Virus record (IMG/VR): IMGVR_UViG_2609459854_000004
Coordinates: 1-16,896 of that record
Direction: 5' to 3' (one strand)
From: a virus
Taxonomy: Duplodnaviria > Heunggongvirae > Uroviricota > Caudoviricetes
DNA: 16,896 bases
Made by a program: the position numbers and the translations under genes. Positions 1,060 to 16,196 of this stretch are shown here, piece after piece (the stretch's first letter is position 1; every line of letters begins with the position of its first letter). The notes beneath the pieces were generated by a model. The model searched no databases. It worked only from the letters and a program-made list of their open reading frames with translations, and was not told the DNA's origin.

Positions 1060-2754
1060 ATGAGTACCACAACACGAAAATTTAAAACCATTATCACTGA
1101 TACTGGTGCCAAAAAATTAGCTCAGGCAGCCGCGCCAGATGGTAATCCTGTCCGCCTGACTCACATGGCCGTGGGCGACGGTGGCGGCACGTTGCCCACA
1201 CCAGACAGTAAGCAGACCCGTCTGGTGCATGAGGTGTGGCGACATACTGTTAATCGCGTCATCCTGGACGCAACACATCAGAACCGCATTATTGCGGAGC
1301 TGGTTATTCCTCCTGAAACGGGCGGATTCTGGATCCGGGAAATTGGTGTATTTGATGAGCACGGCGATTTAATCGCGGTGGGCAATACTGCCGAAAGTTA
1401 CAAACCAACCGTTGCCGAGGGGTCCGGACGTGCACAAACATTTCGCACCATTCTGACCGTATCCAGCACTGCCACCGTGGCGCTTACCGTGGATAACACC
1501 ATGGTGATGGCCACAGTGGATTACGTGAATGACAAACTGAAAGAACATGAACAGTCACGACGTCACCCGGACGCCTCGCTGACCGCAAAAGGCTTTGTTC
1601 AACTCAGTAGCGCCACTAACAGCACGTCTGAAGCACTGGCCGCAACGCCGAAAGCGGTCAAGACAGCCTATGACCTTGCTAACGGGAAATATACCGCACA
1701 GGACGCCACGACGGCACGAAAAGGAATAGTCCAGCTCAGTAGCGTCACTAACAGTGATTCTGAAACGCTTGCCGCGACTCCGAAAGCGGTGAAAGCCGCT
1801 AATGACAATGCAAACGGGCGTGTGCCCTCTGGACGTAAGGTTAATGGCAAATCACTAGCCAATGATGTCAATGTTACATCGCAGGATATTTTTAACGACC
1901 AGAGTATTGAGATTGGTGCAAATCAGAATCTGGATAATTACAAAACACCGGGGCTGTACCATCAGCCATTGAATGCCAATACAAGCGCAGCGCTGAAATA
2001 CCCGGAGAATTTTGCGGGTACACTGGTTGTGCTTAAAAATGCCGGGATAACACAGATTTACTATGTGTATGACACATCCAGAAGCTATACCCGCAGCCAG
2101 TACTCAACGGGTGACTGGACACCATGGACGCCACAAGATTCATTTCCGGTAGGTGCGGCGATACCGTGGCCTTCTGATTCAGTGCCTACAGGCTATACCG
2201 TTATGCAGGGGCAGACTTTTGATAAAACAGTCTACCCCCTGCTTGCAGTCGCTTATCCGTCTGGTGTGATCCCTGATATGCGTGGCTGGACGATTAAGGG
2301 CAAACCCGCCAGTGGTCGGGCCGTATTATCTCAGGAACAGGACGGCATTAAATCACACTCCCACAGTGCCAGCGCGTCCAGTACGGACTTGGGGACAAAA
2401 ACCACATCATCATTTGACTACGGCACCAAGACGTCCAGTTCATTTAACCATGGCACTAAAACCACGAATAGCGCCGGGGATCATTCACACAATATTCCTG
2501 TTGGCAACACTGGCGCTGGTAATGGTGTTTCGGCTGGTTATAACTCAGGGCTTGGCACTGGAAAAACAAGTAACGCAGGGGGGCACTCTCACACAGTAAA
2601 TATTGGCGCACACACTCATACGGTAGGAATTGGCGCACACACACACTCCGTTGCGATAGGTTCACACGGGCATACCATCACCGTTAACGCTACGGGTAAC
2701 GCAGAAAACACCGTAAAAAACATCGCATTTAACTATATTGTGAGGCTTGCATGA
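1060..2754 (+). CDS. H: Tail fibre protein (P2 gpH-like), with tandem fibre repeats and a His-rich HxH tip
   Basis: 564 aa ORF starting 2 nt after the I stop. The N-terminus resembles the conserved P2 H N-terminal domain. Two tandem repeats (…QLSS[A/V][14 protein letters not shown]…) and a C-terminal run of HxH motifs (DHSHN, GHSHT, AHTHT, AHTHS, SHGHT) are typical of phage distal fibre tips. Confidence 0.9.
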
Positions 2755-3653
2755 TTACGCTCATTCTTTCTGCACCAGTAACAGAAATGGCTGAAGCATT
2801 TAAGCAGGTATTTGCAAATGCAGATAGTGTGAATATTGTCGGAAAGCCATTTGAAACAATCAGAGAATTTGACTGCATGGTAAGTGCGGCAAATAGTTTC
2901 GGCTTGATGGATGGTGGCGTTGATGCCGCCATTACCGCATTCTTCGGTACTCAGTTACAGTCCCGCGTTCAGAATCATATTCTTCGTGAATATCTCGGCG
3001 AACAGCCTGTAGGTTCTGCATTTGTCATTGAAACGGGGCATAATCATCACCCCTGGCTGGTACATGCGCCAACAATGCGTGTTCCGTTGACAATTGACGG
3101 AACAGACGCTGTATATAACGCAACCTGGGCCGCTCTGCTTGCCATCTTTCAGCACAATAAAAACGCAACGACAGACATGAAAATAAAAACAGTGGTATTC
3201 CCTGCAATGGGGGCCGGATGTGGTCAGGTGCCGTTTGAAAGTGTTGCCCGACAGATGAAGCAGGCATGGGATAACTTTAATAAAAAAACAGAATCAATTA
3301 ACTGGGAATACGCACAATCTCGCCAGTCGGCAGTATTTGGCACATATGCATACTGTCCGGGTAATTCCGTTTGCCGTTATGCGGATACTAAATATATTGG
3401 ATGCGGCGATTATCGGACGTGTTGCTCTCGTTCCGGGCAACTCTGTATTAACCCTGAACATCAGGCTGATGATGTACTGATACAACATCAGGCTAATAAC
3501 CGTTTTCGCCCTGGTTCGCATATACACCGGATTAATCCAGAAAATCCCGTAGGTAATGTCACCTCTGGCGCACATAGCCACGGAAGTAGCATCGTTATTG
3601 GTACTCCTACCCATACGCTCAATAAACAATATTCTGTCTCTGATATTAAGTAG
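2751..3653 (+). CDS. Macro-domain-like protein with tail-fibre-tip-like (HxH) C-terminal region; function unknown
   Basis: ATG 2751 overlaps the H stop (ATGA) with GAGG 5 nt upstream. The N-terminal ~170 aa carry macro-domain-like motifs (…[18 protein letters not shown]… and …[14 protein letters not shown]…). The C-terminal ~100 aa are Cys-rich then HxH-containing (SHIHR, AHSHG, PTHT) like the H tip. Assignment is by motif only. Confidence 0.6.
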
Positions 3654-3661
3654 AGGTGAAC

Positions 3662-4240
3662 ATGGATTTCAGAATGAGTGAACAATCACGGACCATAAAA
3701 ATTTATAACCTGCTGGCCGGAACTAATGAATTTATTGGGGAAGGTGATGCATACATTCCACCTCATACAGGTCTGCCTGCAAACAGTACCGATATTGCAC
3801 CACCAGATATTCCGGCAGGCTTCGTGGCTGTTTTCAACAGTGATGAGGCATCGTGGCATCTCGTTGAAGACCATCGGGGTAAAACGGTTTATGACGTGGC
3901 ATCAGGGGACGCGTTATTTATTTCTGAACTCGGTCCGTTACCGGAAAATGTTACCTGGTTGTCGCCGGATGGAGAGTGTCAGAAGTGGAACGGCACATCC
4001 TGGGTGAAAGATGCAGAAGCAGAAAAACTGTTTCGGGTACGGGAGGCAGAAGAAACAAAAAACAGCCTGATGCAGGTAGCCAGTGAGCATATTGCGCCAC
4101 TTCAGGATGCCGTAGATTTGGATATTGCGACGGAGGAAGAGGCATCGTTACTGGCTGCATGGAAGACATATAGGGTATTGTTGAATCGTGTTGATACAAC
4201 AGTAGCAGCGGATGTTGAGTGGCCAGTCGCCCCGCAATAA
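3662..4240 (+). CDS. tfa: Tail fibre assembly protein (lambda Tfa-like chaperone)
   Basis: Translation from ATG 3662 ([54 protein letters not shown]…[33 protein letters not shown]…) is near-identical to lambda Tfa as I recall it. GAGG sits 5 nt upstream. The ORF track begins at an upstream in-frame GTG (3656). Confidence 0.9.
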
Positions 4241-4244
4241 AAAG

Positions 4245-4277
4245 AAAAAGCCATCGACAGAAATATCGATGGCTTTA
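4245..4277. terminator. Bidirectional rho-independent terminator-like hairpin between tfa and the acetyltransferase gene
   Basis: AAAAA-GCCATCGA-cagaaata-TCGATGGC-TTT: a perfect 8-bp stem flanked by an A-run on one side and T's on the other, sitting between two convergent genes. Confidence 0.55.
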
Positions 4278-4283
4278 TGTACT

Positions 4284-4856
4284 CTATTTATACAATACAA
4301 CACCACTCTTTTTAGTTATATATGTGCAGTTTGATGGTATATCTTTATTTATAAAAGACATTGCACCTATTTTTACATTATCCCCAATTTTACGTGACAA
4401 TCCAATGATGCAACAATTAGCTCCGATATCAACGTTACTACCAATTTTCACTCTTGAACCAGGCATGTCACCATCTATCTGTCCAATGGTAGTATTCTGT
4501 CGTAATACCAGATTTTCACCCGCATCAACAGCAAAATGAACAACAATTCCAGCATGATGGGGAATTGTTAACCCTTTTCCAATATTTGCTCCCAATCCTA
4601 TTTCACAACCAAATTTGTTAATTATTTTACTGTTTAACTTTTTGGCTGCTTTCTTATGTAATTTATTACCATTAATATACATTTCGTTAGCCAACCGCCA
4701 CCAGAAAAGGAAATTCCGGTTACGCTGCTTTTTCTCTCTTAAAAGCCTCCAGATATCCATACGTTTCCGCCGAATTACTTCATGTTTCCAGAAGTTTTTT
4801 AAATTAGTAGAGTTCCCAAATAAAACAAAGTGAATTGCCATTAAGTAAGACAGCAC
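4284..4856 (-). CDS. Hexapeptide-repeat acyl/acetyltransferase (serine acetyltransferase CysE / WcaB-like left-handed beta-helix); prophage cargo
   Basis: C-terminal half shows hexapeptide repeats and a CysE-like core (…GCEIGLGANIGKGLTIPHHAGIVVHFAVDAGENLVL…IGSNVDIGANCCIIG…IGDNVKIGAMSFINKDIPSN…). Preferred start is GTG at 4856 with AAGGAG 6 nt upstream; the ORF track extends to 4889. The region is strongly AT-rich compared with the flanking tail genes. Confidence 0.65.
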   Translation of the reverse strand: MLSYLMAIHFVLFGNSTNLKNFWKHEVIRRKRMDIWRLLREKKQRNRNFLFWWRLANEMYINGNKLHKKAAKKLNSKIINKFGCEIGLGANIGKGLTIPHHAGIVVHFAVDAGENLVLRQNTTIGQIDGDMPGSRVKIGSNVDIGANCCIIGLSRKIGDNVKIGAMSFINKDIPSNCTYITKKSGVVLYK

Positions 4857-4907
4857 GAAAATCTCCTTAATTATTATTTCAGACCACACATGTTATAAGG
4901 TTAAGAG

Positions 4908-4936
4908 ATTATAAAATCCTGTTATTTGTTATTCAA
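4908..4936 (-). promoter_or_regulatory. Candidate sigma70 promoter for the acetyltransferase gene (TTGAAT-17 bp-TATAAT on the - strand)
   Basis: Reverse complement of 4908-4913 is TATAAT; reverse complement of 4931-4936 is TTGAAT; 17-bp spacer; about 50 nt upstream of the proposed start. Sequence match only. Confidence 0.4.
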
Positions 4937-5012
4937 AAACAATTTTCTGAGAAGGACATACAACAGCAAGTCGCCAGTCACCTTCATCAGGAAATTGGCG
5001 ACATACGTTAAA

Positions 5013-5507
5013 TCAGAGCAGCCCCTTAACTGAGCTGGCCGCACTATTAAGGGATGATGTCACCTTATCTTTGAAGCCGGACAACATATCGCTGAACGAT
5101 GAGGATTGCAGGCGCTCCCGCAAATCCTCATCACAGCGTTCAAGAGTCAGTGAAAATTCTATCTTTTTCGCCTTACCGTAGCGATCAAACTCGGAACGGG
5201 TCGTATTCGTTCCGGTCAGGACATACATGCCGTAAATCTGCCCGACGCCATCAATCAGAGGCCAGGGTCGCCCTGTATACGCCTGCGTGGTCAGCAGCGA
5301 CAGCGACACTTCACCACCTGTAATTTCAGGATAAAGCACACCAGAAAGAACGATGCGATCATCACCTGCACCGATATACTGCCAGCTTGCTGAACGGTTA
5401 ACGCGTTCATTTTTCACATGCCGCCAGCTTTTGTTTTGCTGTAACTGCTGATGCGGCAACGTGCGCAGCTCAAAAACAAACATGCCGTAGATCATCATCA
5501 TGGCCAT
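5013..5507 (-). CDS. U: Tail protein U (P2 gpU-like)
   Basis: 164 aa; N-terminus M.MMIYGMFVFELRTLPHQQLQ…SWRH…GVLYPEITGG…PWPLIDGVGQIYGMYV…TRSEFDRYG resembles P2 gpU. Lies immediately downstream of T on the same strand. Confidence 0.85.
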   Translation of the reverse strand: MAMMMIYGMFVFELRTLPHQQLQQNKSWRHVKNERVNRSASWQYIGAGDDRIVLSGVLYPEITGGEVSLSLLTTQAYTGRPWPLIDGVGQIYGMYVLTGTNTTRSEFDRYGKAKKIEFSLTLERCDEDLRERLQSSSFSDMLSGFKDKVTSSLNSAASSVKGLL

Positions 5508-5513
5508 GACTCC

Positions 5514-8357
5514 TCAATCTTTATCGTAAAAACTGCCACGCCCGGCACGGGCGCGCCGTTCCATTTCTGCCCTGACCATTTCACCGACCAGTTTCGCCAG
5601 TTCGTGGGGATTCTGCGTAACAACGTTATGCAGATGAACATGAATTTCACCACCAAATCCGGAGGCAACAGGCTCCCGGTTACGGGAAGTTGCAGGCACT
5701 GATGCTACTGGTGATCGTATGGCCTCCGCCACCGGGCGGGTGCTGGCCGCAACAACAGGGACCAGCGCCGGAGGCAGCGGAGCCGGAACCACGGGGGTGA
5801 TATTAATTGCGGGGGCAGGCTTACTGACCTGCGCAATCTTCCGCTCCTGCCACTCCCCACGAACAGCAAGTGCGCGGGGCAGGTTCTTAAAGACAATATC
5901 GCCGGGGCCAATGCGTTTTTTCGTCTCATCAACCAGCTTACCTGTGTTATCAGCAATTTTGCTTAGTCTGCGCAGCGTACCGGTATTGCTGTCTGTGAGC
6001 GGTTTGTTGTCTTTGGGTTTATCACCTCCGGTGCCATTGCCATTTTCCACAGGCTTCGGCGGATTGATTTTCGCCAGGTCCCCCTGAAGCAAGGCAACCT
6101 TGTCCTGAAGAATGGCAGCACGCTGTGCGTCTTCGATTTTCTTGCGCGCCCTTTCCGCTTCATCCGGAAGCACACCGAGCTTTTCAAGTATCCACGCCAG
6201 CGTATCCAGCAACATTTTTGCAGGTGTCAGAACAAGTTGTAACGCACCGCCAAGAACGTTACCGAATATCTCGCCAGCACTGGTACATTTATCCAGCGTT
6301 TCCTTGCTGGACTCCATCGGTGACAGCAGCGATTTAAACCAGTTAAACACCTGGCTGATCCCACTCCCGATTGCGTCAAAAACAGGACCAAACCGTTCAA
6401 AGGTTTCGCGCAACGGGGTCAGCCTTTCCATAATCCCGCTGAACACCCCGGCAAAAAATGCCCTGATGGGATCCCAGTATTTCCAGATAAGAACGGCAGC
6501 TCCGGCAAGCGCAGCCACGATAAGACCAACCGGACTGAACAACGCCCCGATAGCGCCTCCCAGTAAAGAAACGGAACCCGTCACCATTCCCCATAGTGCT
6601 GGCAGAACCCTGACAGCATTCATTGATCCGGTCAGGAGGGAAAAACCAAGACGCAGTTTTGCCAGCGGGCCAGCAAGCACACCAATAGCCAGCGACAACG
6701 AGCCAACCGTTGCAGTCATTGCCAGCAGTGCACTGCCTGCAATCAGTAGCTGGCGCGTCAGTGCGGGATGGGCCTGCGCCAGCGCCGTCACCTTTGATAC
6801 CACACGCGTGAGCCACTGCGTGACAGAACGCAGCGGACCGTCAATCAGATCTGCAATGCGGATGCGCAACCCTTCCCATGCACTGCTGAGTGATTTCAGA
6901 TCGCCGTCAAGGTTGTTGGCCATAACCTTTGCCGTGCGTTCAGCCTCACCGCGCGCGCCTTCAAGTTCTTTTCTCAGTTTGGGTAAGGAGCCGTCACCTG
7001 CCGCATCAACGAGGGCCATAAATGATGTGAAAGCCTCTTCTCCGGCAATGTCCTCAAAGAACGATACCCGGTCAACTTCCCCGTATTTGCGGGTAGCTTT
7101 ATAAAGGTCAGCCAGCACATCCTCCATCGGGCGCATTTTGCCCCCGGCATCCGAGACAGACACGCCAAGCTCTTTCAGCGCCTCTGCTGCCGCCTTTGGC
7201 GGTGATGCCAGACGAGCCAGGCTGGCACGCATTGCCGTCCCGGCATCACTCCCTCTGATACCCATATTCGCCAGCACGCCCGCCATCGCTGCGGCCTGCT
7301 CCAGCGATATTCCCAGCTTACCCGCCACCGGACCTGCATATTTCATGGTTTCGCCCAGCGCGCGAAGGTCAGTGTTAGTACGGGTAAACGCTGCTGTAAG
7401 CGTGTCACCGACCCGGTCCATCTGGTCAGCGGAGAGGCCGAACTGCGTCAGGATATTTGAGCCAATATCCGCCGTCTCGCCAAGGTCCATACCGCCAGCC
7501 GTTGCCATGCTCAGCACGCCCGGAAGCGCAGCCTGAATGGCCTGCGGTGTGAAGCCAGCCATTGCAAGAAATGCCTGCCCACTGGCGGCATCGCCTGCGG
7601 TGAACTGCGTTTCAGAGCCAAGTTTTAACGCCTGCTCACGCAGCGCCTTAAACTGCGGGCTGTTTTTGTCGATTCGCGTCAGTGCCTGAACGCGGGACAT
7701 CTCTTTCCCGAACCCGATCGCAGGCTGCAAAAAACGCCCGACAGCATAGCCGCCCGCCGCTGCCGCACCAATTGCCAGCGCACCACCTGTTTTCAGTTTT
7801 CCCGCTGTTTCCTGCGCGCTCGAATACCGCTCACGCGCCCGCGTTACACGCGCAAGCGCCTGCCGTTCGCGTTCAAGCTGGTTGTTGTATTGTTCGGTGC
7901 GTCTGATGGCCTGCTGGATGGTGTTATCGCTGCCTGTCAGGGAAATGCCGTGGCGTTTCAGCTCTCCGCCAAGCTCCCGCATTTTCTGAATTTCCCGTGC
8001 GCGCGATTCATTCAGGCGTTCAAGCCGGGTGCTTAACTGCTGCATCAGCTTTTGTTGTTTTTCGCTGAGCACTGTACCCGTGCGTTGTAACTGATTAAGG
8101 GCGTTAAGCTGGCGTCGTGCTTTCAATATGCCAGCATCCGCTTTACTGACAGCGTCACGGGCGCGCTCAAATGATCGCGCCTGACGCTCGAGATTTTTGA
8201 TCGCCCCCTGCGTTCGCTGGATGGAGTCACCAAACTGCCCCATCAGGCGGCGGGCGTTTTCGGCAGGACGGGTCAGCCTGTCAACGGCGCTGAAAGCGAC
8301 CCGGATATCAAGAGTCTTCATTGTCTGCATTCCCGCTGCGAAGTGCCGCCCGCTCAC
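5514..8357 (-). CDS. T: Tail tape measure protein (P2 gpT-like)
   Basis: Approximately 940-aa ORF in the conserved position after the E/E' chaperone. Coiled-coil-rich N-terminus, central Ala/Gly-rich hydrophobic segments, Pro-rich C-terminus. Start uncertain: GTG at 8357 or ATG at 8330 or 8321; it overlaps the E' reading frame as in P2. Confidence 0.85.
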   Translation of the reverse strand: MSGRHFAAGMQTMKTLDIRVAFSAVDRLTRPAENARRLMGQFGDSIQRTQGAIKNLERQARSFERARDAVSKADAGILKARRQLNALNQLQRTGTVLSEKQQKLMQQLSTRLERLNESRAREIQKMRELGGELKRHGISLTGSDNTIQQAIRRTEQYNNQLERERQALARVTRARERYSSAQETAGKLKTGGALAIGAAAAGGYAVGRFLQPAIGFGKEMSRVQALTRIDKNSPQFKALREQALKLGSETQFTAGDAASGQAFLAMAGFTPQAIQAALPGVLSMATAGGMDLGETADIGSNILTQFGLSADQMDRVGDTLTAAFTRTNTDLRALGETMKYAGPVAGKLGISLEQAAAMAGVLANMGIRGSDAGTAMRASLARLASPPKAAAEALKELGVSVSDAGGKMRPMEDVLADLYKATRKYGEVDRVSFFEDIAGEEAFTSFMALVDAAGDGSLPKLRKELEGARGEAERTAKVMANNLDGDLKSLSSAWEGLRIRIADLIDGPLRSVTQWLTRVVSKVTALAQAHPALTRQLLIAGSALLAMTATVGSLSLAIGVLAGPLAKLRLGFSLLTGSMNAVRVLPALWGMVTGSVSLLGGAIGALFSPVGLIVAALAGAAVLIWKYWDPIRAFFAGVFSGIMERLTPLRETFERFGPVFDAIGSGISQVFNWFKSLLSPMESSKETLDKCTSAGEIFGNVLGGALQLVLTPAKMLLDTLAWILEKLGVLPDEAERARKKIEDAQRAAILQDKVALLQGDLAKINPPKPVENGNGTGGDKPKDNKPLTDSNTGTLRRLSKIADNTGKLVDETKKRIGPGDIVFKNLPRALAVRGEWQERKIAQVSKPAPAINITPVVPAPLPPALVPVVAASTRPVAEAIRSPVASVPATSRNREPVASGFGGEIHVHLHNVVTQNPHELAKLVGEMVRAEMERRARAGRGSFYDKD

Positions 8358-8837
8358 GCCAGCTAACCACTTCGCCGGGCGTCATCATGAAGATTTCGGC
8401 GGGCGACCAGTTAAAAATGGCGGCAATATCCGCCACAAAGTCTTCTATGTGCTCAAAGCACACAACCGTGATCAGGCTTCCGTCGCCTGTTCGTTCTTCC
8501 CGCCAGAGTCCGCACCGCTCAAAAAATTTACGGCAACCACACATAACTGAATAAAGTCACGGGATGCCATTTTTTTGATCGTCACTTCATCCAGTCGCGG
8601 TGATGTCACGCGTGACAGCAGCGTAAACATGGATTCCGCTTTCAAATTCAGCACATCAGACAGCGACAAATCTCGCAGAGATCCAGCCTGCTCAATAGCC
8701 CCGGTGATCTCCACATACGTGATTTTTTCGCCGCCTCGCTCAATTGGTTGGGTAAGTTTTACGCCACGCTCACTGGTTTCTTTCACAGTGTCAGTAACTA
8801 CCGTGTTTTCGGTATCGATGTTTTTCGTCTCTTTCAT
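8308..8837 (-). CDS. Tail assembly chaperone E+E' (-1 programmed frameshift fusion product)
   Basis: The -1 frame relative to E is open from just downstream of the slippery site to 8308 (…FFERCGLWREERTGDGSLITVV…). A shift at T_TTT_TTG joins the E N-terminus to this extension. The chaperone frameshift is conserved in P2 and other long-tailed phages. Confidence 0.6.
8472..8837 (-). CDS. E: Tail assembly chaperone E (P2 gpE-like), unshifted product
   Basis: 121-aa acidic ORF between the tube gene and T, carrying a canonical slippery heptamer in frame. Confidence 0.8.
   Translation of the reverse strand: MKETKNIDTENTVVTDTVKETSERGVKLTQPIERGGEKITYVEITGAIEQAGSLRDLSLSDVLNLKAESMFTLLSRVTSPRLDEVTIKKMASRDFIQLCVVAVNFLSGADSGGKNEQATEA
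8520..8526 (-). other. Programmed -1 ribosomal frameshift site, slippery heptamer T_TTT_TTG (E/E')
   Basis: On the - strand the E-frame codons read aaT|TTT|TTG, a canonical X_XXY_YYZ heptamer in the correct phase. The -1 frame downstream is open for about 70 codons. Confidence 0.65.
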
Positions 8838-8891
8838 CAGGGAACTCCTTTCAGTCAGGGGCGACGCACTGCGCCGCCTGCATATTACTTA

Positions 8892-9404
8892 TCAGCCAAG
8901 CCCGAGCGCGGAACGGATGCGATCGGGCACAATGTCCTTGCCGTCCTTCCGGTAAATGAAGTTCAGCAGGTCAATCTCCCACAACGGGCGATCGTTAACG
9001 CTCAGCTTGTAGTAGGTGTTTTTAATGGCGTAAGTGTGTGATGTGGCTTCGCCCTGTTTGGCTTCCCCCATATCAATTTCCGTCACGCGTCCGCGCATTT
9101 CGACTTCATACAGGTCGCTTTCTGCATCGGTGTAGTATTCACCCGCAAAACGCAGCAGCGTGCCGTCAATCGTGCCGCCATACTTAAGGAACAGCTCACG
9201 AACTGCGCCCCCCATGACAAAGCTCGCATCAAGCGCGGAGTCGTCCAGACCGAGATCAATACTTACCGCCCCCATCATGCCACCACCCCGGTAGCTGTCG
9301 GTTTTGCGCGTCAGCTTAGGCAGAGTGACGGACGTCACCTTACCCACTTCGTTTTCACCATCCACAAACAGCGTAAAAAAGCGAAGATGTTTTGGCACAG
9401 CCAT
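8892..9404 (-). CDS. FII: Tail tube protein (P2 gpFII-like)
   Basis: 170-aa ORF; its start overlaps the FI stop (TGATG). Size and position match P2 FII. Confidence 0.85.
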   Translation of the reverse strand: MAVPKHLRFFTLFVDGENEVGKVTSVTLPKLTRKTDSYRGGGMMGAVSIDLGLDDSALDASFVMGGAVRELFLKYGGTIDGTLLRFAGEYYTDAESDLYEVEMRGRVTEIDMGEAKQGEATSHTYAIKNTYYKLSVNDRPLWEIDLLNFIYRKDGKDIVPDRIRSALGLG

Positions 9405-10588
9405 CAGGCACCTCCCAGCACCGCAAATGCGGGTTCAAAGTATTCATCAGTAAACGTCTGGTAAAGCTCCATGTCTTCCAGTGGCGGAACGGGCGTATAT
9501 TTGTAGCGAATACGCACACGCCCCTGACGTAAATCCGTGGTGCTGTTATCCACCACGTCATACCAGCACTCCGCGCCAATCAGCTTCCCGGCAGTAACCA
9601 GTGAATCCAGTTTTGCCCTGATGGCACTGATAACATCCTTCACGTTCGCGGGTGTTAATGGACTGTCGATGGTTTCAAACTGCGCTTCCGCAATTGAATC
9701 AGCCAGCACCTGTGCGGTTCGGGTATACACCTCAAAGATGTAGGCGTTCGTTTCCGGTGTGCGGTTGCCCCAGAAGCGGAACCCGTTGCGACGAATAATG
9801 GTCGTGATTTCTTTGTTGTTGAGGCTGTTGGCATCGCTGTCTTCGGCCTGCAACGACCAGAACACATGCCTCGACATCCCCAGCACATTTTTAACCGGAA
9901 CGTTGGACAGTGATTTGTGCCATCCCTGCTCATGGTCAATGTACGCACGAAGGCCGCACGCATAGGCAGGCGCGGGGAACGTTTCGTTTTTGCCACTTTT
10001 CGGGTTGTAGGCGATGAAGTCCGGCCATAAGAGCATCACCTCACGTTCGTTGAATTTCTGGCGGTAGGTAATCGCCTCAGCCATCGTGTTACAGCCGTGA
10101 CATGAGGCATACACAAACGCGCGCAGTTTACCTGCAATCACGCACAGGGATTTTGTTACAGCCTCCGTGTCCAGCTCCGGCGCGGCCAGAATACGCGGAC
10201 GGTATCCGATGCTTTCATCCTGCTCTGCAACAAGCAGCGCATACATCCCCGTATAGCTGCCGTCATCCTCAGAACCACCGATAACCAGTTGATCCTGCGT
10301 CTTTCCGTCTTCTTCTTTGTGTTCAGCCACGCGAACGACGATCACCTTTGTGCTCACCTGGTCTGCGATGGCCTTAAGCGCACGATAAAGCGTCCCCGTT
10401 GTCCCGCATTTTCCCAGCACGTCATTGACGCGGGTCAGCAGTGTGGGCTTGTTCAGCGGGAACAGCTTCGCGTCCGCATCATCCGCCGTTGCCACGATAC
10501 CGATAACGCTGGAATCAACATCGTTAATCGCTGTTACCAGGTCGGTATTTTCCGTAACACGGGCACCATGAAAACGAGTTTCACTCAT
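9404..10588 (-). CDS. FI: Contractile tail sheath protein (P2 gpFI-like)
   Basis: 394-aa ORF; motifs …ATADDADAKLFPLNKP…GTLYRALKAIADQ…LRAFVYASCHGC…LLWPDF…GWHKSLSNV…IRRNGFRFWGNRT…YTRTAQVLADS…YKYTPVPPLEDMEL resemble P2 FI. Confidence 0.9.
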   Translation of the reverse strand: MSETRFHGARVTENTDLVTAINDVDSSVIGIVATADDADAKLFPLNKPTLLTRVNDVLGKCGTTGTLYRALKAIADQVSTKVIVVRVAEHKEEDGKTQDQLVIGGSEDDGSYTGMYALLVAEQDESIGYRPRILAAPELDTEAVTKSLCVIAGKLRAFVYASCHGCNTMAEAITYRQKFNEREVMLLWPDFIAYNPKSGKNETFPAPAYACGLRAYIDHEQGWHKSLSNVPVKNVLGMSRHVFWSLQAEDSDANSLNNKEITTIIRRNGFRFWGNRTPETNAYIFEVYTRTAQVLADSIAEAQFETIDSPLTPANVKDVISAIRAKLDSLVTAGKLIGAECWYDVVDNSTTDLRQGRVRIRYKYTPVPPLEDMELYQTFTDEYFEPAFAVLGGA

Positions 10589-10745
10589 AGCTTCAGCCCC
10601 TTGTATCCGTTAAATGATTCGGCAACAATCATCACCCACCACGCGCGTAATCTCACCCCTGCGCCGTTCTCCCGATTCGGCGACAACAAAAAGCAGTAAC
10701 CCCTTCCGCACGCACATGCGACCATGCCGCACAGGGAGGGAACAG
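10589..10745. promoter_or_regulatory. Divergent FI/D intergenic region; candidate late (Ogr-type) promoter for the FI operon, with repeated GATTCGGCRACAA motif
   Basis: 157-bp non-coding gap between head-to-head FI and D. Contains two direct copies of GATTCGGC[A/G]ACAA (about 10615-10628 and 10674-10689), a dyad ATGATT-n7-AATCAT (10614-10632) and a palindrome CCGATTCGG. Function inferred only from position. Confidence 0.3.
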
Positions 10746-11855
10746 ATGACTGATACCACCATGCAATTGCTCAGTCAGGGCACAGACCCCGTGAAAATGC
10801 CGGATTTTGATATTCTCGCGGAGGGTAAAACGCTGTCCGGCGTGGCAGAGCGCCTGATGAACCTGTCACTGACCGACAACCGGGGATTTGAAGCAGACCA
10901 GCTCACCATCACGCTGGATGATGCGGATGGTCAGTTGCAGCTACCGCCACGGGGCGCGCGCCTGACGGTTCTCATTGGCTGGAAAGGAGAACCGCTGACA
11001 GAAAAAGGCACTTACATCGTTGATGAAATCGCTCACGAGGGACCGCCGGACAGACTGACTGTTTCAGCCAGAAGCGCAGATTTTCGGGATGAATTTAACG
11101 TTAAACGTGAGGTGTCATGGCATGATGTGACCGTTGAGCGTGTGGTATCCGCCATCGCTCATCGGTACGGCCTGAAACCGCAAATCAGCGAAATGCTGAT
11201 GGATATCGAAATCGACCACGCCGACCAGACCGAAGAAAGCGACATGTCCTTCCTTACGCGCATGGCGGAAATGCTGGGCGCAATCACCACAGTAAAAAGC
11301 GGTAATCTGTTATTCATCATGCCAGGCGGTGGCGTGAACGCACAGGGCCAGCCGTTGCCATCGTTCGCCATCACTCGCAGCAGTGGCGATCGCCATCAGT
11401 TCCGCATTGCTGACCGCGAAGCGTATACGGGGGTACGCGCTTACTGGCTTGATCTTAATTACGGGAAAAAGAAAAAAGTCAGCGTGAAACGCCGCAAACC
11501 GAAAAAAGAGAAAAGCAGCAGCCGTGAAGGTGACTATATGGAAGGTTCGGAAGGCAACGTGTTTGTGTTACGCAAAACTTATCAGAACGAACAGGCAGCA
11601 AGACGCGCAGCGGCGGCAAAGTGGCAGCAGCTACAACGCAGAGCCGCATCATTCTCCATCACACTGGCACGTGGACGCGCAGAACTCTACCCCGAAATGC
11701 ATGGCACGGTGACAGGCTTCAAAAGTGACATCGACAATCAGGACTGGATTATTGCAAAAGCCGAGCACACCATTGATAACAGCGGCTTTACCACGCAGCT
11801 TGAGCTTGAGGCAAAAATCCCAGAGTGGATAGCAGAAACAGAGCGAGCAACATAG
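10746..11855 (+). CDS. D: Tail protein D (P2 gpD-like, late-control gene D family)
   Basis: ATG at 10746 with AGGGAGGG upstream. Motifs …DQLTITLDDADGQLQLPPRGARLTV.IGWKGEPL…SARSADFRDEFN…REVSWHD…SDMSFLTRMAEM…AITRSSGDRHQFRIADREAYTGV…, plus a Lys-rich linker, resemble P2 gpD. Confidence 0.85.
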   Translation: MTDTTMQLLSQGTDPVKMPDFDILAEGKTLSGVAERLMNLSLTDNRGFEADQLTITLDDADGQLQLPPRGARLTVLIGWKGEPLTEKGTYIVDEIAHEGPPDRLTVSARSADFRDEFNVKREVSWHDVTVERVVSAIAHRYGLKPQISEMLMDIEIDHADQTEESDMSFLTRMAEMLGAITTVKSGNLLFIMPGGGVNAQGQPLPSFAITRSSGDRHQFRIADREAYTGVRAYWLDLNYGKKKKVSVKRRKPKKEKSSSREGDYMEGSEGNVFVLRKTYQNEQAARRAAAAKWQQLQRRAASFSITLARGRAELYPEMHGTVTGFKSDIDNQDWIIAKAEHTIDNSGFTTQLELEAKIPEWIAETERAT

Positions 11856-11932
11856 ATACATTAGTTCATGCATAAGCTGGCCAGCTTACTACAAAAAGCT
11901 AGAATAAATTTGGCAATCCGCACAAATTAACA

Positions 11933-11951: not shown

Positions 11952-11960
11952 GTGGTTGAA

Positions 11961-12428
11961 TTATTGTTTAATGGCGTTTTCTATCCATGTCGCCAAATTG
12001 TTCTTGATATCGCTATAAGCGTCGTTAAAGTTAGGTTCATATACGAGTGGTTTAATTACTCGATCGCCTCGCTTAAATGTAAATTGGTCGAAAGGATTCG
12101 GTCCTTTTGTCCCATAGCCGTTACGAGGGCATTTCAGTCGATGAATATAAATACCCACCACAGCCTTACCCTCTTTCCAGGCTCTTTCGATCTCATACTT
12201 GACCCATGGGCGATTAGCCGTTTGACTCCCGATCAGTACTACTAAGCAGGATTTGCCATTTAAGCTCTGATTAATCCAATTCTTCACGCCCTGCTCAGTT
12301 CGTTTAATTTGTTCCCAAGTATTTGGGCTAACCGGTTCATCCCCCTCCAGCACTCCCATGTTACGAATCTGCTGTACCCGCATAACATCGTTATCAAAGT
12401 GAAAGCTGTAAAATACCTTACGTTTCAT
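11961..12428 (-). CDS. thsB: Thoeris ThsB-like TIR-domain protein (DUF1863-type TIR)
   Basis: 155 aa; MKRKVFYSFHFDNDV…LVVLIGSQTANRPWVKYEIERAW…KGPNPFDQF matches the ThsB/TIR-like signature (KxVFxSFHxxD…LIGSQT…W…YEI). Strong AGGAGG 6 nt upstream of the ATG; 2-bp gap to the thsA stop, so likely co-translated. AT-rich island. Confidence 0.7.
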   Translation of the reverse strand: MKRKVFYSFHFDNDVMRVQQIRNMGVLEGDEPVSPNTWEQIKRTEQGVKNWINQSLNGKSCLVVLIGSQTANRPWVKYEIERAWKEGKAVVGIYIHRLKCPRNGYGTKGPNPFDQFTFKRGDRVIKPLVYEPNFNDAYSDIKNNLATWIENAIKQ

Positions 12429-12430
12429 AT

Positions 12431-13876
12431 CTAACCTCCTAGTTTCTTTAAAATTTCTAAAACTTTCATTTCGATATTTGCCCGATTAGCAGAGAGATCT
12501 GCAAGCTGAGCAACTTCCTTTTCCAACCAAGGGTACCGGACAAAATGTTTACTTGGATCCGTCAGCATCTCGTCAGCTAGTTCCTTGGCCATATAACCAG
12601 TGACGCCAAGTGGAAGCACGACAACCCCTGTTTCCTGAGCAATTTGAAACTCCCTTCGGACCCCATCAGCATTAACGATTCGACCATCATGGAGTTTATT
12701 CCCAAAAAGGAATATAGCGATTCCAGAAAGACCAATCATACGCTGCCGATATTCGTCCCATAGCTCGCTCAGGGCTTTATCGTTTGATGAGTGTTGAGGG
12801 AATGGCCGCATGATAAGTTGCTCTTCTGAGTACTTATCAGGCTTAGAATAAATGGCTTCAAGAGCTCCGTTGATGACCGCACTACCAATACCCCATCCAA
12901 ACCCATTGACAACTCGATAGCCATTCTTCACCAAAGATGACGAAAGTATGTGTACAAAGTTTAGTGCTTCCTGTTTGTCCCAAGCGCCATACTCTTCTGC
13001 ACTACCAGATATAAATATGGTCTTCTTGAGGAAGCGACTCTCAATCTCTTTCAATATAAGTGGAATATCATCGTACTCGTTTACTAATACAGCCTGAATG
13101 CCAAAACGGAGCAAATCGCGAATATGATGTTCTTGCCTACGCTGCCTATACATAGCGCCAGCTTCATCTTCATTTCCTTGCGGCAGAGAGGGTTCCTTAC
13201 GAAGAAAGCAGTAGTGTCTACGACGATGCTTCTCCGGAACATGCAATCGGCTCAATATGTAATCAAGATTAGGATCAGTAAAACTGAAGCCAATAAATAA
13301 GAATGTCTTAGAAATCAAATCTCCACTCAATGCTGTAACAAACCCCTCATGGGTCTTGTAGTACTGCTCATACTGAGCTTTATAAAGTATGGCGTCACCT
13401 GGCGAGCTAACATCACCATGCATTTTGTAAACAACAGCATCTCGTTTAGGACGAGTGGAAATAAGATCATCGGTTCTGCGTTTAATATCTGCGACACGGT
13501 AGTTTTCTTTGAGACTATCTTCAATCAAAGTGTCATAGTTGGTTGTCCAATAAGTTCTAATGGGTAGTCTAGCAAGGATTTTATGGGCTTCGGAAGGTTC
13601 CGCTTGCTCCGAGAATTCCTCTAGGATTTTTCTAGCTAAACCAGTTGAGCTGTTGTTCTTGTTGACATGGTATTGTGCAACCGAAATTAAGTCGTGCTCT
13701 AGCTCAACAGAAAGGCCTAATTCTTCAGCAATTTCACGCAGCAGTTCACTCCAATTAACGAAGCCGCTGGTTCTAGATAGGCCCGCACCAGCAAAAACGG
13801 CGGCAACCCCTTCTTCGAGATCCTTCACATAAGTCCTGATAAAAGCTTCAACTTCAGCCGAAAACTGAACACTCAT
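12431..13876 (-). CDS. thsA: Thoeris ThsA-like protein, N-terminal SIR2 (NADase) domain plus C-terminal SLOG/STALD sensor domain
   Basis: SIR2 motifs AAVFAGAGLSRTSGF…, …RTYWTTNYDTLIE… (catalytic Asn) and …AVVYKMHGDV… (catalytic His), then …TFLFIGFSFTDPNLDYIL…. C-terminal SLOG-like motifs …IFISGSAEEYGAW…NGFGWGIGSAVINGALE…IFLFGN…. Preferred start is ATG 13876 (MSVQF…); the ORF track gives TTG at 13897. Confidence 0.7.
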   Translation of the reverse strand: MSVQFSAEVEAFIRTYVKDLEEGVAAVFAGAGLSRTSGFVNWSELLREIAEELGLSVELEHDLISVAQYHVNKNNSSTGLARKILEEFSEQAEPSEAHKILARLPIRTYWTTNYDTLIEDSLKENYRVADIKRRTDDLISTRPKRDAVVYKMHGDVSSPGDAILYKAQYEQYYKTHEGFVTALSGDLISKTFLFIGFSFTDPNLDYILSRLHVPEKHRRRHYCFLRKEPSLPQGNEDEAGAMYRQRRQEHHIRDLLRFGIQAVLVNEYDDIPLILKEIESRFLKKTIFISGSAEEYGAWDKQEALNFVHILSSSLVKNGYRVVNGFGWGIGSAVINGALEAIYSKPDKYSEEQLIMRPFPQHSSNDKALSELWDEYRQRMIGLSGIAIFLFGNKLHDGRIVNADGVRREFQIAQETGVVVLPLGVTGYMAKELADEMLTDPSKHFVRYPWLEKEVAQLADLSANRANIEMKVLEILKKLGG

Positions 13877-14289
13877 ATTTTTAGACAATCCGGTCAAAAG
13901 ATAGACATAAACTTCTTACCACAAACTAACCTTTGTAGTTCTATACACCGCTTTTACGCTGTGCTTTAGTATCCAAATGGATTCATTACTACTGGGGTCA
14001 GTACCTATTGAGTAAGTAGGTAGAAAGCCATTACTAGCTCCAATACTCGCTAAGTATATGAGGCAATTAGGTGGTATTTTCAAGTTCACCGAGCCTGATA
14101 CAGGGCCATAGGAATAAATAGTCACATTTTCGTAGCTCTTTTCCACTATTGGTAGTTAAATAATTACTTTCACTTTATCGCTCAAAGCGTACTCTCAGGT
14201 TTATTGCTTTTTAGTTACATAAACCGTCAGTTAGAGTTTGTACCTGTACAACCTAGAATAACGGTAGCAACACGTTTGGGGAGGTCGCA

Positions 14290-14550
14290 ATGTTCCGTTG
14301 TCCACTTTGTGGTGCATCTGCCCGTATCCGCACCAGTCGTCCGGAAAATGATTCAAACACTGTACGACAAAAGTATTACCAGTGTAATAACTTAGAATGC
14401 GGCGTATGCTTCTCAACACTGGAAGCTTTTCATAAGTTCACATCAAAACACACCTCCTGCGTTCACTCTTCAGGGGATATTCCGTGGCATGAGCTGCCAG
14501 CTTCACACAAGGGAAACAATCAGATGAGTTTGCCTTTACCTCAGAATTAA
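14290..14550 (+). CDS. ogr: Ogr/Delta-family zinc-finger late transcription activator
   Basis: MFRCPLCGASARIRTSR…YYQCNNLECGVCF: a C-x2-C…C-x4-C zinc finger with Ogr-like spacing; GGGGAGG upstream. At 86 aa it is longer than P2 Ogr by a C-terminal extension. Confidence 0.8.
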   Translation: MFRCPLCGASARIRTSRPENDSNTVRQKYYQCNNLECGVCFSTLEAFHKFTSKHTSCVHSSGDIPWHELPASHKGNNQMSLPLPQN

Positions 14551-14638: not shown

Positions 14639-14875
14639 ATGTGGAAAGGCCCCGGAAAAACATCTCTGTTTAACCGAGGCCCTAACCGCATTACCTTGAC
14701 AAGTGAAAGGTTAGCGCCTCTCCGGAAAAGGAGCAAGTGCTATGTCGCAAAAATCGCTTACGGCCATCACGTTCTGCGTGACGGCAATCCTCATCATCTG
14801 GATGCTGCACGGTTCGCTGTGCGAAATACGGATGAGCTTCTGGGGAGCGGAGTTTGCGGCGTTCTTACAGTGTAA
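14639..14875 (+). CDS. mok: mok-like overlapping reading frame (modulator of killing) of a hok/sok-type locus
   Basis: 78-aa ORF in a different frame that almost completely overlaps the hok-like ORF and ends 7 nt before its stop. This is the arrangement characteristic of mok/hok. No independent sequence support. Confidence 0.35.
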   Translation: MWKGPGKTSLFNRGPNRITLTSERLAPLRKRSKCYVAKIAYGHHVLRDGNPHHLDAARFAVRNTDELLGSGVCGVLTV

Positions 14876-14882
14876 GCAGTAA
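14742..14882 (+). CDS. hok: Hok/Gef-family type I toxin (small membrane peptide)
   Basis: 46-aa ORF MSQKSLTAITFCVTAILIIWMLHGSLCEIRMSFWGAEFAAFLQCKQ: single TM helix followed by the Hok/Gef signature SLCEIR…E.AAF. Not in the supplied ORF track because it is under 60 aa. Confidence 0.7.
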   Translation: MSQKSLTAITFCVTAILIIWMLHGSLCEIRMSFWGAEFAAFLQCKQ

Positions 14883-15893: not shown

Positions 15894-15980
15894 TGGTACC
15901 CGGAGCGGGACTTGAACCCGCACAGCGCGAACGCCGAGGGATTTTAAATCCCTTGTGTCTACCGATTCCACCATCCGGGC
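15894..15980 (-). tRNA. leuZ: tRNA-Leu (anticodon TAA)
   Basis: Reverse complement reads GCCCGGATGGTGGAATCGGTAGACACAAGGGATTTAAAATCCCTCGGCGTTCGCGCTGTGCGGGTTCAAGTCCCGCTCCGGGTACCA: 87 nt with long variable arm, anticodon loop TT-TAA-AA, encoded CCA. Confidence 0.9.
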
Positions 15981-15992
15981 TCGGGAAGAAAG

Positions 15993-16066
15993 TGGAGGCG
16001 CGTTCCGGAGTCGAACCGGACTAGACGGATTTGCAATCCGCTACATAACCGCTTTGTTAACGCGCC
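15993..16066 (-). tRNA. cysT: tRNA-Cys (anticodon GCA)
   Basis: Reverse complement reads GGCGCGTTAACAAAGCGGTTATGTAGCGGATTGCAAATCCGTCTAGTCCGGTTCGACTCCGGAACGCGCCTCCA. Confidence 0.9.
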
Positions 16067-16120
16067 AAATTCTTCAGGCCTTTCAGCCAGACATCCGCTT
16101 GACGCCGATGTCTTTTAAAC

Positions 16121-16196
<76 letters not shown>

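Follow-up and report, generated by a model that had tools for sequence, protein, structure and literature searches.

An inverted FI-to-U tail block is the fixed gene order of P88-like prophages, with a probable bidirectional Ogr-type late promoter between FI and D

The window, the whole 16,896-nucleotide stretch of viral DNA analysed here, carries a P2-like (Peduoviridae) contractile tail module, recognised by Pfam as FI, FII, E/E', T, U and D. The ORF listing and Pfam matches place U, T, E/E', FII and FI on the minus strand, at 5013-10588, and D and ogr on the plus strand. An earlier note had read the same orientations from the letters, with J, I, H and tfa also on the plus strand, and the present annotation bears it out. 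The genes and flanking features are these:

127-534, plus: J (partial), from the ORF listing and Pfam
494-1057, plus: I, from the ORF listing and Pfam
1060-2754, plus: H, from the ORF listing and Pfam
3656-4240, plus: tfa, from the ORF listing and Pfam
4247-4276: hairpin with A-run and T-run flanks, a 13-bp stem and a T-tail, between the converging ends of tfa (plus) and the acetyltransferase gene (minus)
4284-4889, minus: hexapeptide (serine) acetyltransferase, low-GC cargo downstream of U and in the same direction
4890-5012: left junction; P88-like homology begins at 5007, which is 6 nt beyond the stop codon of U
5013-5507, minus: U, tail protein (PF06995, E=1.5e-38; 99.4% amino acid identity to P88; dN/dS 0.03)
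5514-8357, minus: T, tape measure protein (PF10145; 98.2% amino acid identity to P88; dN/dS 0.19)
8472-8837 (E) and 8308-8544 (E' extension frame), minus: tail chaperones E and E' (PF06528 on the E' frame)
8892-9404, minus: FII, tail tube (PF04985, E=7.5e-47; 100% amino acid identity to P88)
9404-10588, minus: FI, tail sheath (PF04984, PF22671, PF17482; 99.7% amino acid identity to P88)
10746-11855, plus: D, tail/baseplate hub protein of 369 aa (PF05954; 98.9% amino acid identity to P88 D; dN/dS 0.04)
11961-12428, minus: thsB, Thoeris pair
12431-13897, minus: thsA, Thoeris pair
14290-14550, plus: ogr, late-gene activator of the Ogr/Delta zinc-finger type (PF04606, E=5e-14), presumed to bind the box between FI and D

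The coordinates given for T are those of the longest ORF; the annotated start in relatives is equivalent to about 8321. A longer D ORF, from 10614, has no support in relatives, and a plus-strand ORF at 11952-12245 overlaps thsB and is without a family match.

FI and D read divergently across a gap of exactly 157 bp (10589-10745), and U ends 123 bp from the acetyltransferase gene; both junctions are as the earlier note had them. The acetyltransferase gene has its own sigma70-like promoter (TTGAAT-17-TATAAT, 4936 to 4908). The hairpin at 4247-4276 is likely to act as a bidirectional terminator, both for the V-to-tfa transcript and for any read-through from FI..U. All Xuanwuvirus matches begin at window position 5007, and the DNA to the left of this point is a variable cargo slot. 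At the other end of the block, ogr does not directly follow D, as a type I Thoeris pair lies in between.

The canonical arrangement, which the earlier note had given correctly, is that of the P2 record (AF063097), where FI FII E E' T U D and ogr are co-directional and U abuts D. The window shares with the P2 F operon its gene set, the order from FI to U, the E/E' frameshift motif, and the type of activator box, which lies some 80 nt upstream of FI and has a -10 element at +34. However, the FI operon of P2 ends with D, whereas in the window D is separated from that operon and divergent from FI; co-directional FI to D, with D after U and a single pF, is not the order found here. Protein identities between P2 and the window are only 32-49%. 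A -1 frameshift is annotated in E/E' of the P2 record. The window has a slippery site, TTTTTTG (8520-8526, minus strand), within E and upstream of the overlapping E' frame, which is a putative programmed -1 frameshift motif for E/E'.

A much closer match is found in the plaque-forming phage P88 (Xuanwuvirus P88, NC_026014/KP063541). Alignment to related phages, a check proposed in the earlier note, joins window positions 5007-11856 (U to D) to P88 in one piece of 6.85 kb at 98.1% DNA identity. The same stretch is 94-96% identical to other Xuanwuvirus phages and phiSM, and the U-to-D block is collinear with 13 phage records. In P88, U T E' E FII FI share a strand, the opposite strand carries D followed by ogr, and the FI-D gap is also 157 bp. 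This order and orientation recur in its relatives phiSM (Citrobacter rodentium), 520873, PhiR44_2 and P884B11. P88 differs from the window in two places: the position of the window's Macro-domain ORF and acetyltransferase gene is taken in P88 by an invertible alternative fibre segment and a DNA invertase, and where the Thoeris pair separates D from ogr in the window, P88 has the two genes about 42 bp apart.

A near-identical prophage in E. coli H3 contains the complete P88 gene set, from integrase through the tail genes to ogr, which is annotated there as ogr/Delta-like. The conserved core of the window has the gene order of P88 and high identity to it, as in Xuanwuvirus. The ICTV genus criterion is at least 70% genome-wide nucleotide similarity to the type phage. 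The H3 prophage has an aligned fraction of 0.71 with P88, and the aligned part is 95.8% identical; the product, 0.68, comes from a one-way comparison with approximate prophage ends and is near the 70% line. The window represents the right arm of a P88-like prophage of full length, of Xuanwuvirus type and in the family Peduoviridae. In E. coli the integration site of this prophage adjoins leuZ-cysT-glyW/pgsA.

The inverted layout extends well beyond this genus, to Senquatrovirus SEN5, Reginaelenavirus and Reipivirus. In SEN4/5 (Salmonella, Senquatrovirus) and in Klebsiella Reginaelenavirus and Reipivirus prophages, the gap is 157-172 bp and its box and spacing are as in the window, whereas FI and D protein identity is only 55-72%. 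FI is opposite and adjacent to D in 65 of 65 sampled loci with a D at least about 60% identical, and the co-directional order is present in all 23 more distant loci, including P2, phiCTX, and Mannheimia and Burkholderia phages. These counts cover the 80 species-representative loci listed in a GTDB census (62 inverted, 18 canonical) plus a handful of phage records. The inverted layout is thereby found in at least 62 species-representative genomes from more than 25 genera, and a simple neighbour-joining tree built on a single protein, D, groups the inverted loci as one clade. The inverted block is the fixed, normal gene order of the P88-like clade and not an anomaly of this prophage. Of the readings entertained in the earlier note, a natural architectural variant is the one that holds: an entire clade has this as its standard layout. 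The xenorhabdicin locus of Xenorhabdus (xnp1) was considered as a functional example of the layout and rejected, as its published description puts the variable region between the genes for sheath and fibre, in agreement with the canonical order. The layout is already known in the sense that public annotated genomes contain it. A search for "inversion", "inverted" and "orientation" in the P88, SEN4/5, phiSM, P2-diversity and hotspot papers found no description of it or of a shared FI/D promoter.

The gap between FI and D contains the elements of a candidate control region:

10589-10745 (157 bp): FI-D control region, a putative bidirectional Ogr-type late promoter (pF leftward, "pD" rightward)
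10628-10633, minus: -10-like hexamer for FI, GATGAT, 34 nt from the left half-site; predicted start about 10621 (minus)
10666-10687: dyad activator box GTTCT-cccgattcggcg-ACAAC (GTTCT-N12-ACAAC), centred at 10676.5
10720-10725, plus: -10-like hexamer for D, GACCAT, 34 nt from the right half-site; predicted start about 10732
10734-10740, plus: Shine-Dalgarno (SD) sequence GGGAGGG of D, with the ATG at 10746

The consensus for P2 late promoters is TGT-N12-ACA (PMC3931495). The window box, TCT-N12-ACA, is one mismatch away from it, a form that is also seen in the portal/scaffold divergent gap of P88. The orthologous gaps of other genera have perfect TGT-N12-ACA boxes; those of SEN5 and Kp4871-3 are perfect, unlike that of the window. 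An exact search of the window for TGT-N12-ACA gave two matches, none of them in the gap and no more than chance would give. This search missed the gap box because of its one mismatch, and the box was recognised only through its relatives. With a matrix built from 54 relatives in other genera, the box is the top match in the window at 28.3 bits (next best, 14.2). When the other-genera matrix is run on both strands of P88 (35.8 kb), the FI-D gap ranks first at 26.4 bits and the portal/scaffold divergent gap second at 20.3.

The position of the box is kept across genera, 74-88 nt from the FI ATG, and the spacing of the hexamers is kept as well. A NANNNT hexamer lies exactly 34 nt from the half-site on the D side in 56 of 62 unique relatives and on the FI side in 60 of 62, with counts of at most 12 at other offsets (24 to 45 nt). 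Part of the conservation of the gap could come from the FI promoter alone and from the translation signals of D. Both GATGAT and GACCAT match TATAAT only weakly. At about 13 nt, the leader predicted for D is very short, and the SD sequence begins 2 nt past the predicted start.

The same geometry is known from P2. In the P2 record, one activator site is common to pP and pO, with mapped starts 55.5 nt either side of its centre and hexamers (TAGCCT and GAAACT) 34 nt from the half-sites; pP, pO and pF share this box spacing, again with mapped starts. The pF box of canonical relatives is found at 76-82 nt from the FI ATG, and its hexamers at +34, GATGAT among them, are the same. The window gap resembles pP/pO in having divergent late operons about 155-175 bp apart, one central dyad box, and -10 hexamers 34 nt out. 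In P2 this design is confined to the portal-terminase/scaffold junction, whereas the window has a second copy in the FI-D gap, where starts and Ogr dependence are predictions; for P2 both have been mapped. The fixed geometry of Ogr-type promoters (a box near -55 and a -10 element about 34 nt from the half-site) is found here relative to predicted starts, and the phage encodes a zinc-finger activator, ogr.

Two other patterns in the gap were set aside. A 25-bp direct repeat, CCGTT..GATTCGGC.ACAA (about 10607-10630 and 10664-10690), is attributed to chance, since the second copy in P88 reads GCCACGGCG and the repeat is lost. A CGCGCG-TAATCT string common to the portal/scaffold and FI-D gaps of P88 lies on opposite strands at unequal distances from the box, and other genera are without it.

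Several other explanations of the locus have been weighed. An assembly artefact, with the FI..U block mis-oriented in this one genome, has nothing in its favour beyond the departure from P2 order and practically no chance of being correct: both junction-spanning sequences recur in independently assembled genomes, and a probe across the FI-D junction (10300-11050) is covered over at least 80% of its length in 1,358 of 5,426 complete E. coli genomes, about a quarter. The collinear phage records and the species representatives described above argue against it as well. It is scarcely more credible that the block is a phase-variable segment switched by a DNA invertase of the phage, as fibre segments are in Mu, P1 and P88 itself. 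The P88 invertase gene does adjoin the U end of the block, but no such gene lies in the window, there is no pair among 35 inverted-repeat pairs with arms in 4890-5012 and 10589-10745, a single orientation was found at every sampled inverted locus, and the promoter and translation signals appear adapted to the present orientation. Rearrangement in a decaying, non-functional prophage, raised in the earlier note, is also very improbable. Foreign cargo lies at both ends of the block, and RefSeq calls a few accessory genes of H3 pseudogenes and starts D late. However, all tail ORFs are full length at 98-100% protein identity to P88, five tail genes are intact, U, T, FII, FI and D have dN/dS values of 0-0.19, the slippery frameshift motif is undamaged, and the H3 prophage retains its P88 gene set. 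Moreover, the layout is that of phages known to function: P88 is inducible and plaque-forming, its tail is contractile and its burst size about 65, and SEN4/5 and phiSM are active phages, according to the literature. These are functional relatives in the same orientation with a conserved box and two predicted -10 elements, the very observation that the earlier note had held would count against an anomaly.

A different question is whether the box serves FI only, with D transcribed from an Ogr-independent promoter elsewhere in the gap of a natural, fixed layout. The weak D-side -10 element and the short predicted leader are consistent with this, as is a TAATCT hexamer on the plus strand at 10648-10653. 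On the other hand, TAATCT is not conserved in other genera, and the D-side spacing is exactly 34 nt in most relatives despite 40% protein divergence, mirroring both the FI side and P2 pO. D is also a stoichiometric tail component that is needed simultaneously with FI..U. A sigma70 consensus scan found no promoter-like site in 10589-10745; this fits activator-dependent promoters, though by itself it is uninformative. An Ogr-independent D promoter is, on balance, unlikely.

Very probably, the locus reflects an ancient, fixed inversion of pF together with FI..U, and the FI-D gap holds a bidirectional Ogr-dependent late promoter. The layout, its fixation and monophyly, the integrity of the genes and the conservation of the box with its spacing are observed, and from there we infer Ogr binding, both start sites and the historical order of events. 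In the proposed scheme, an ancestral segment comprising the pF promoter and FI FII E/E' T U would have inverted, one breakpoint falling a short way upstream of the pF activator site and the other where U meets D, and would then have become fixed in the clade. The inversion would have put the pF activator site directly upstream of D, where it could act because a dyad can serve promoters on both sides, as in P2 pP/pO. One box (10666-10687) would drive leftward transcription of FI..U, starting at about 10621, and rightward transcription of D, starting at about 10732. Where a phage has no cargo behind D, ogr would be part of the rightward transcript as well. The earlier note had argued that D, cut off from its operon, would need a new promoter in the gap. 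A promoter is indeed predicted there; it is most likely the old pF activator site read both ways rather than a new one.

The evolutionary consequences follow with somewhat less confidence. It is likely that a single dyad Ogr box let an inversion split the F operon into FI..U and D(-ogr) with late control kept, fixing a second pP/pO-style promoter. The by-product would have been a pair of cargo slots with convergent ends, the first behind U and the second between D and ogr, in which genes for lysogenic conversion and defence, Thoeris among them, are now found.

In genome scans, this layout is no ground for flagging a rearranged, decayed or misassembled prophage; it reliably marks a clade of enterobacterial P2-like prophages that is very common. 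The two cargo slots beside the conserved U-to-D core, home to defence genes such as Thoeris, are located by it as well. For phage biology, the locus would provide a natural example of a dyad-symmetric activator site that makes an operon robust to inversion, and it predicts a fifth Ogr-dependent late promoter, pD.

The window is the right arm of a P2-like prophage, with the following genes called from the ORF listing and Pfam scans.

Genes of the window, with coordinates and strand
127-534, +, J (partial)
494-1057, +, I
1060-2754, +, H, tail fibre
2751-3653, +, Macro-domain ORF of 300 aa (PF01661, E=1e-18)
3656-4240, +, tfa, fibre assembly
4284-4889, -, low-GC hexapeptide acetyltransferase
5013-5507, -, U
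5514-8357, -, T
8308-8837, -, E/E'
8892-9404, -, FII
9404-10588, -, FI
10746-11855, +, D
11961-12428, -, thsB of type I Thoeris, TIR (PADLOC ThsB1, E=3e-70)
12431-13897, -, thsA of type I Thoeris, SIR2-SLOG (PADLOC ThsA1, E=6e-203)
14290-14550, +, ogr (PF04606)
15894-16196, downstream of ogr, tRNA-Leu (15894-15980), tRNA-Cys and tRNA-Gly
beyond the tRNA genes, pgsA

An Escherichia coli H3 prophage, running from an integrase adjoining yecA to leuZ, is 99.7% identical to the window. The sole sizeable difference lies in H, which is ∼131 bp longer in H3 (608 aa, locus L002 17060-18886, versus 564 aa; 92.8% identity), consistent with a fibre-tip exchange. The Macro-domain ORF sits between H and tfa and is translationally coupled to H; in phage SEN5 its place is taken by a second "tail fiber protein" of about the same size. 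A Macro domain would be unusual in a fibre component. A Hok/Gef-family toxin gene, annotated in the H3 and P88 records, lies directly past ogr (∼14742-14882, +), before the attachment-site end that the prophage has at tRNA-Leu.

In a common phage clade, the inverted tail layout is the usual gene arrangement. An earlier note placed FI through U on the minus strand and D with ogr on the plus strand, with the FI and D starts separated by 157 bp (10589-10745), and the end of U adjoining the acetyltransferase; the ORF listing and Pfam bear out this arrangement and every coordinate. Its comparison also holds for the annotated P2 record, in which FI FII E E' T U D ogr all run in one direction and U abuts D. 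A reading of the layout as an anomaly is not supported, as Escherichia phage P88 (Xuanwuvirus, locus L001), phiSM, SEN5, and other relatives share it. Positions 5007-11856, which start 6 nt beyond the stop codon of U and end at that of D, align with P88 in a single piece at 98.1%; for the Citrobacter phage phiSM and further Xuanwuvirus records the figure is 94-96%. P88 is annotated with the same order, strands, and 157-bp gap; SEN5 has the same inverted layout and likewise a 157-bp gap, and the Klebsiella phage genera Reginaelenavirus and Reipivirus are inverted too. P88 is induced by mitomycin C and forms plaques, with a burst of ∼65 and a contractile tail, phiSM is spontaneously active, and SEN4/5 is a plaque-forming myovirus.

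A 751-bp probe spanning FI-D, with at least 80% coverage required, finds the junction in 1,358 of the 5,426 complete E. coli genomes; identity is mostly 95-99%. When D was aligned to one genome per GTDB species and the loci checked by tblastn, FI was opposite and adjacent to D in 62 of the loci listed and in canonical order in 18. Hosts of inverted loci include Escherichia, Salmonella, Klebsiella, Enterobacter, Citrobacter, Serratia, Erwinia, Pantoea, Pectobacterium, Brenneria, Symbiopectobacterium, Edwardsiella, Providencia, Morganella, Xenorhabdus, Photorhabdus, Yersinia, Hafnia, and others. Among these listed loci, identity to the window D separates the layouts: all at or above ∼60% are inverted and all at or below 53% are canonical. 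In a neighbour-joining tree of D, 65 inverted loci form one clade with no canonical tips inside. The tree includes P2, Kapieceevirus, phiCTX, Mannheimia PHL101, and Burkholderia phiE12-2, and canonical order is ancestral, because all outgroups have it. One prophage block (L009, NZ_JBQPOM010000071.1), on a 226-kb contig labelled Vagococcus sp. WN89Y, has 96-99% protein identity to the window; given this Firmicute label, the assembly has most likely been contaminated or mislabelled.

Besides a natural variant, the earlier note had entertained rearrangement in a decaying prophage and an assembly artefact. The five large tail genes are full length, with dN/dS of 0.00-0.19 against P88 and two further relatives, and the E/E' slippery site TTTTTTG is intact. 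No inverted repeats flanking the tail block and no invertase gene were found in the window, and the block has a single orientation at 65/65 loci. The block is neither decayed nor a switch, and it is virtually certain that the layout is natural and fixed in the clade. For H3 (L002 27134-27987), RefSeq starts D late (266 aa) and adds a pseudo-ORF; the D ORF itself is intact and 100% identical to that of the window.

When the gaps between FI and D across the inverted clade are aligned, each on its best dyad, a box of the form G[G/T]T[G/C]T-N12-ACAAC proves conserved; its centre is 74-88 nt away from the start codon of FI. The window box, GTTCT-cccgattcggcg-ACAAC (10666-10687), reads TCT-N12-ACA; TGT-N12-ACA, the P2 late-promoter consensus (PMC3931495), differs from it at one position and is matched perfectly by the SEN5 and Kp4871-3 boxes. 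A matrix trained only on 54 unique gaps from other genera was used to scan both strands of the whole P88 genome, and it ranks the FI-D gap first (26.4 bits). Second is the divergent portal-terminase/scaffold gap (20.3 bits, GTTCTggccgttttcttACAACAAAAG), the site of the late promoters pP and pO in P2, and the third hit falls to 14.2 bits. The fourth (L001 18636-18666, 14.0 bits, GTTCT-N12-ACCAC), inside a DUF2570/LysB-like gene ∼450 bp upstream of the P88 tail-completion genes, could mark another late promoter or have arisen by chance. The P88 record also annotates a 43-aa "hypothetical protein" (L001 33155-33286) within its FI-D gap.

Across 62 unique gaps, a -10-type hexamer (NANNNT) stands at a distance of exactly 34 nt from the right half-site 56 times and from the left half-site 60 times; no other offset between 24 and 45 nt has a count above 12. 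The window hexamers are GACCAT toward D (10720-10725, +) and GATGAT toward FI (complement of 10628-10633). The P2 record annotates a single activator site common to pP and pO (TGT-N12-CCA by sequence, centre 3071.5); their mapped starts, 3016 and 3127, each lie 55.5 nt from this centre, and the two hexamers, TAGCCT and GAAACT, are each exactly 34 nt away from a half-site and precede a start by 7 nt. The single P2 pF, with a mapped start and annotated activator site, has the same geometry. Matrix rank, hexamer spacing, and P2 geometry support the box as the late activator site. By this geometry, starts are predicted near 10621 (-), with a 32-nt leader to FI, and near 10732 (+), with a leader of ∼13 nt to D, whose ATG at 10746 follows a GGGAGGG Shine-Dalgarno sequence. 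A sigma70 consensus scan of the gap found no promoter, which is what activator-dependent promoters without a -35 element should give. The gap is probably a bidirectional Ogr-dependent promoter, in which Ogr would bind the box and drive late firing in both directions.

The pF box of canonical relatives sits 76-82 nt away from the FI ATG and shares the +34 hexamers, GATGAT among them; evidently, then, the promoter moved together with FI at the inversion. A single inversion, breaking upstream of pF and at the U-D boundary, would have moved pF with FI and thereby brought the symmetric box next to D.

P88-like homology ends precisely at the U and D stop codons, and the contents beyond vary, which marks a core flanked by two cargo slots. 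Left of U, P88 has an invertible fibre segment and invertase, SEN5 only a 203-bp gap, and the window an acetyltransferase of the serine/hexapeptide type with its own sigma70-like promoter (TTGAAT-17-TATAAT, 4936 to 4908) and a likely bidirectional terminator (4247-4276). GC content here is 35-41% (4200-4936), and 4200-4848, from the tfa end through the acetyltransferase, is 91% identical to DNA of the unrelated large phages JL22 and vB_EcoM-Ro157c2YLVW, suggesting a mobile tfa-linked module. Right of D, ogr follows directly in P88, after only ∼42 bp, whereas the window has a complete type I Thoeris system on the opposite strand. Two other loci (L009 and L054) also carry additional DNA here, so this looks like a cargo or defence slot of the clade. 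A transcript from the predicted D-ward promoter would run into Thoeris transcription from the opposite direction, so ogr presumably has to depend on a promoter of its own.

The tail block behaves as a P2 tail module, probably under late control of the P2 type, although the one feature that defines the canonical F operon, co-directional FI to D, is absent. Its best placement is among the P88-like phages; whole-genome similarity, ∼68% one-way for the H3 copy against P88, makes genus membership borderline. The layout is already known as data, being present in many deposited, annotated, ICTV-classified genomes; no text found in the searchable literature comments on the inversion or proposes a shared FI/D late promoter. 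The promoter logic is a modest new point, and the outcome is an architecture common to a clade plus a small, testable mechanistic insight.
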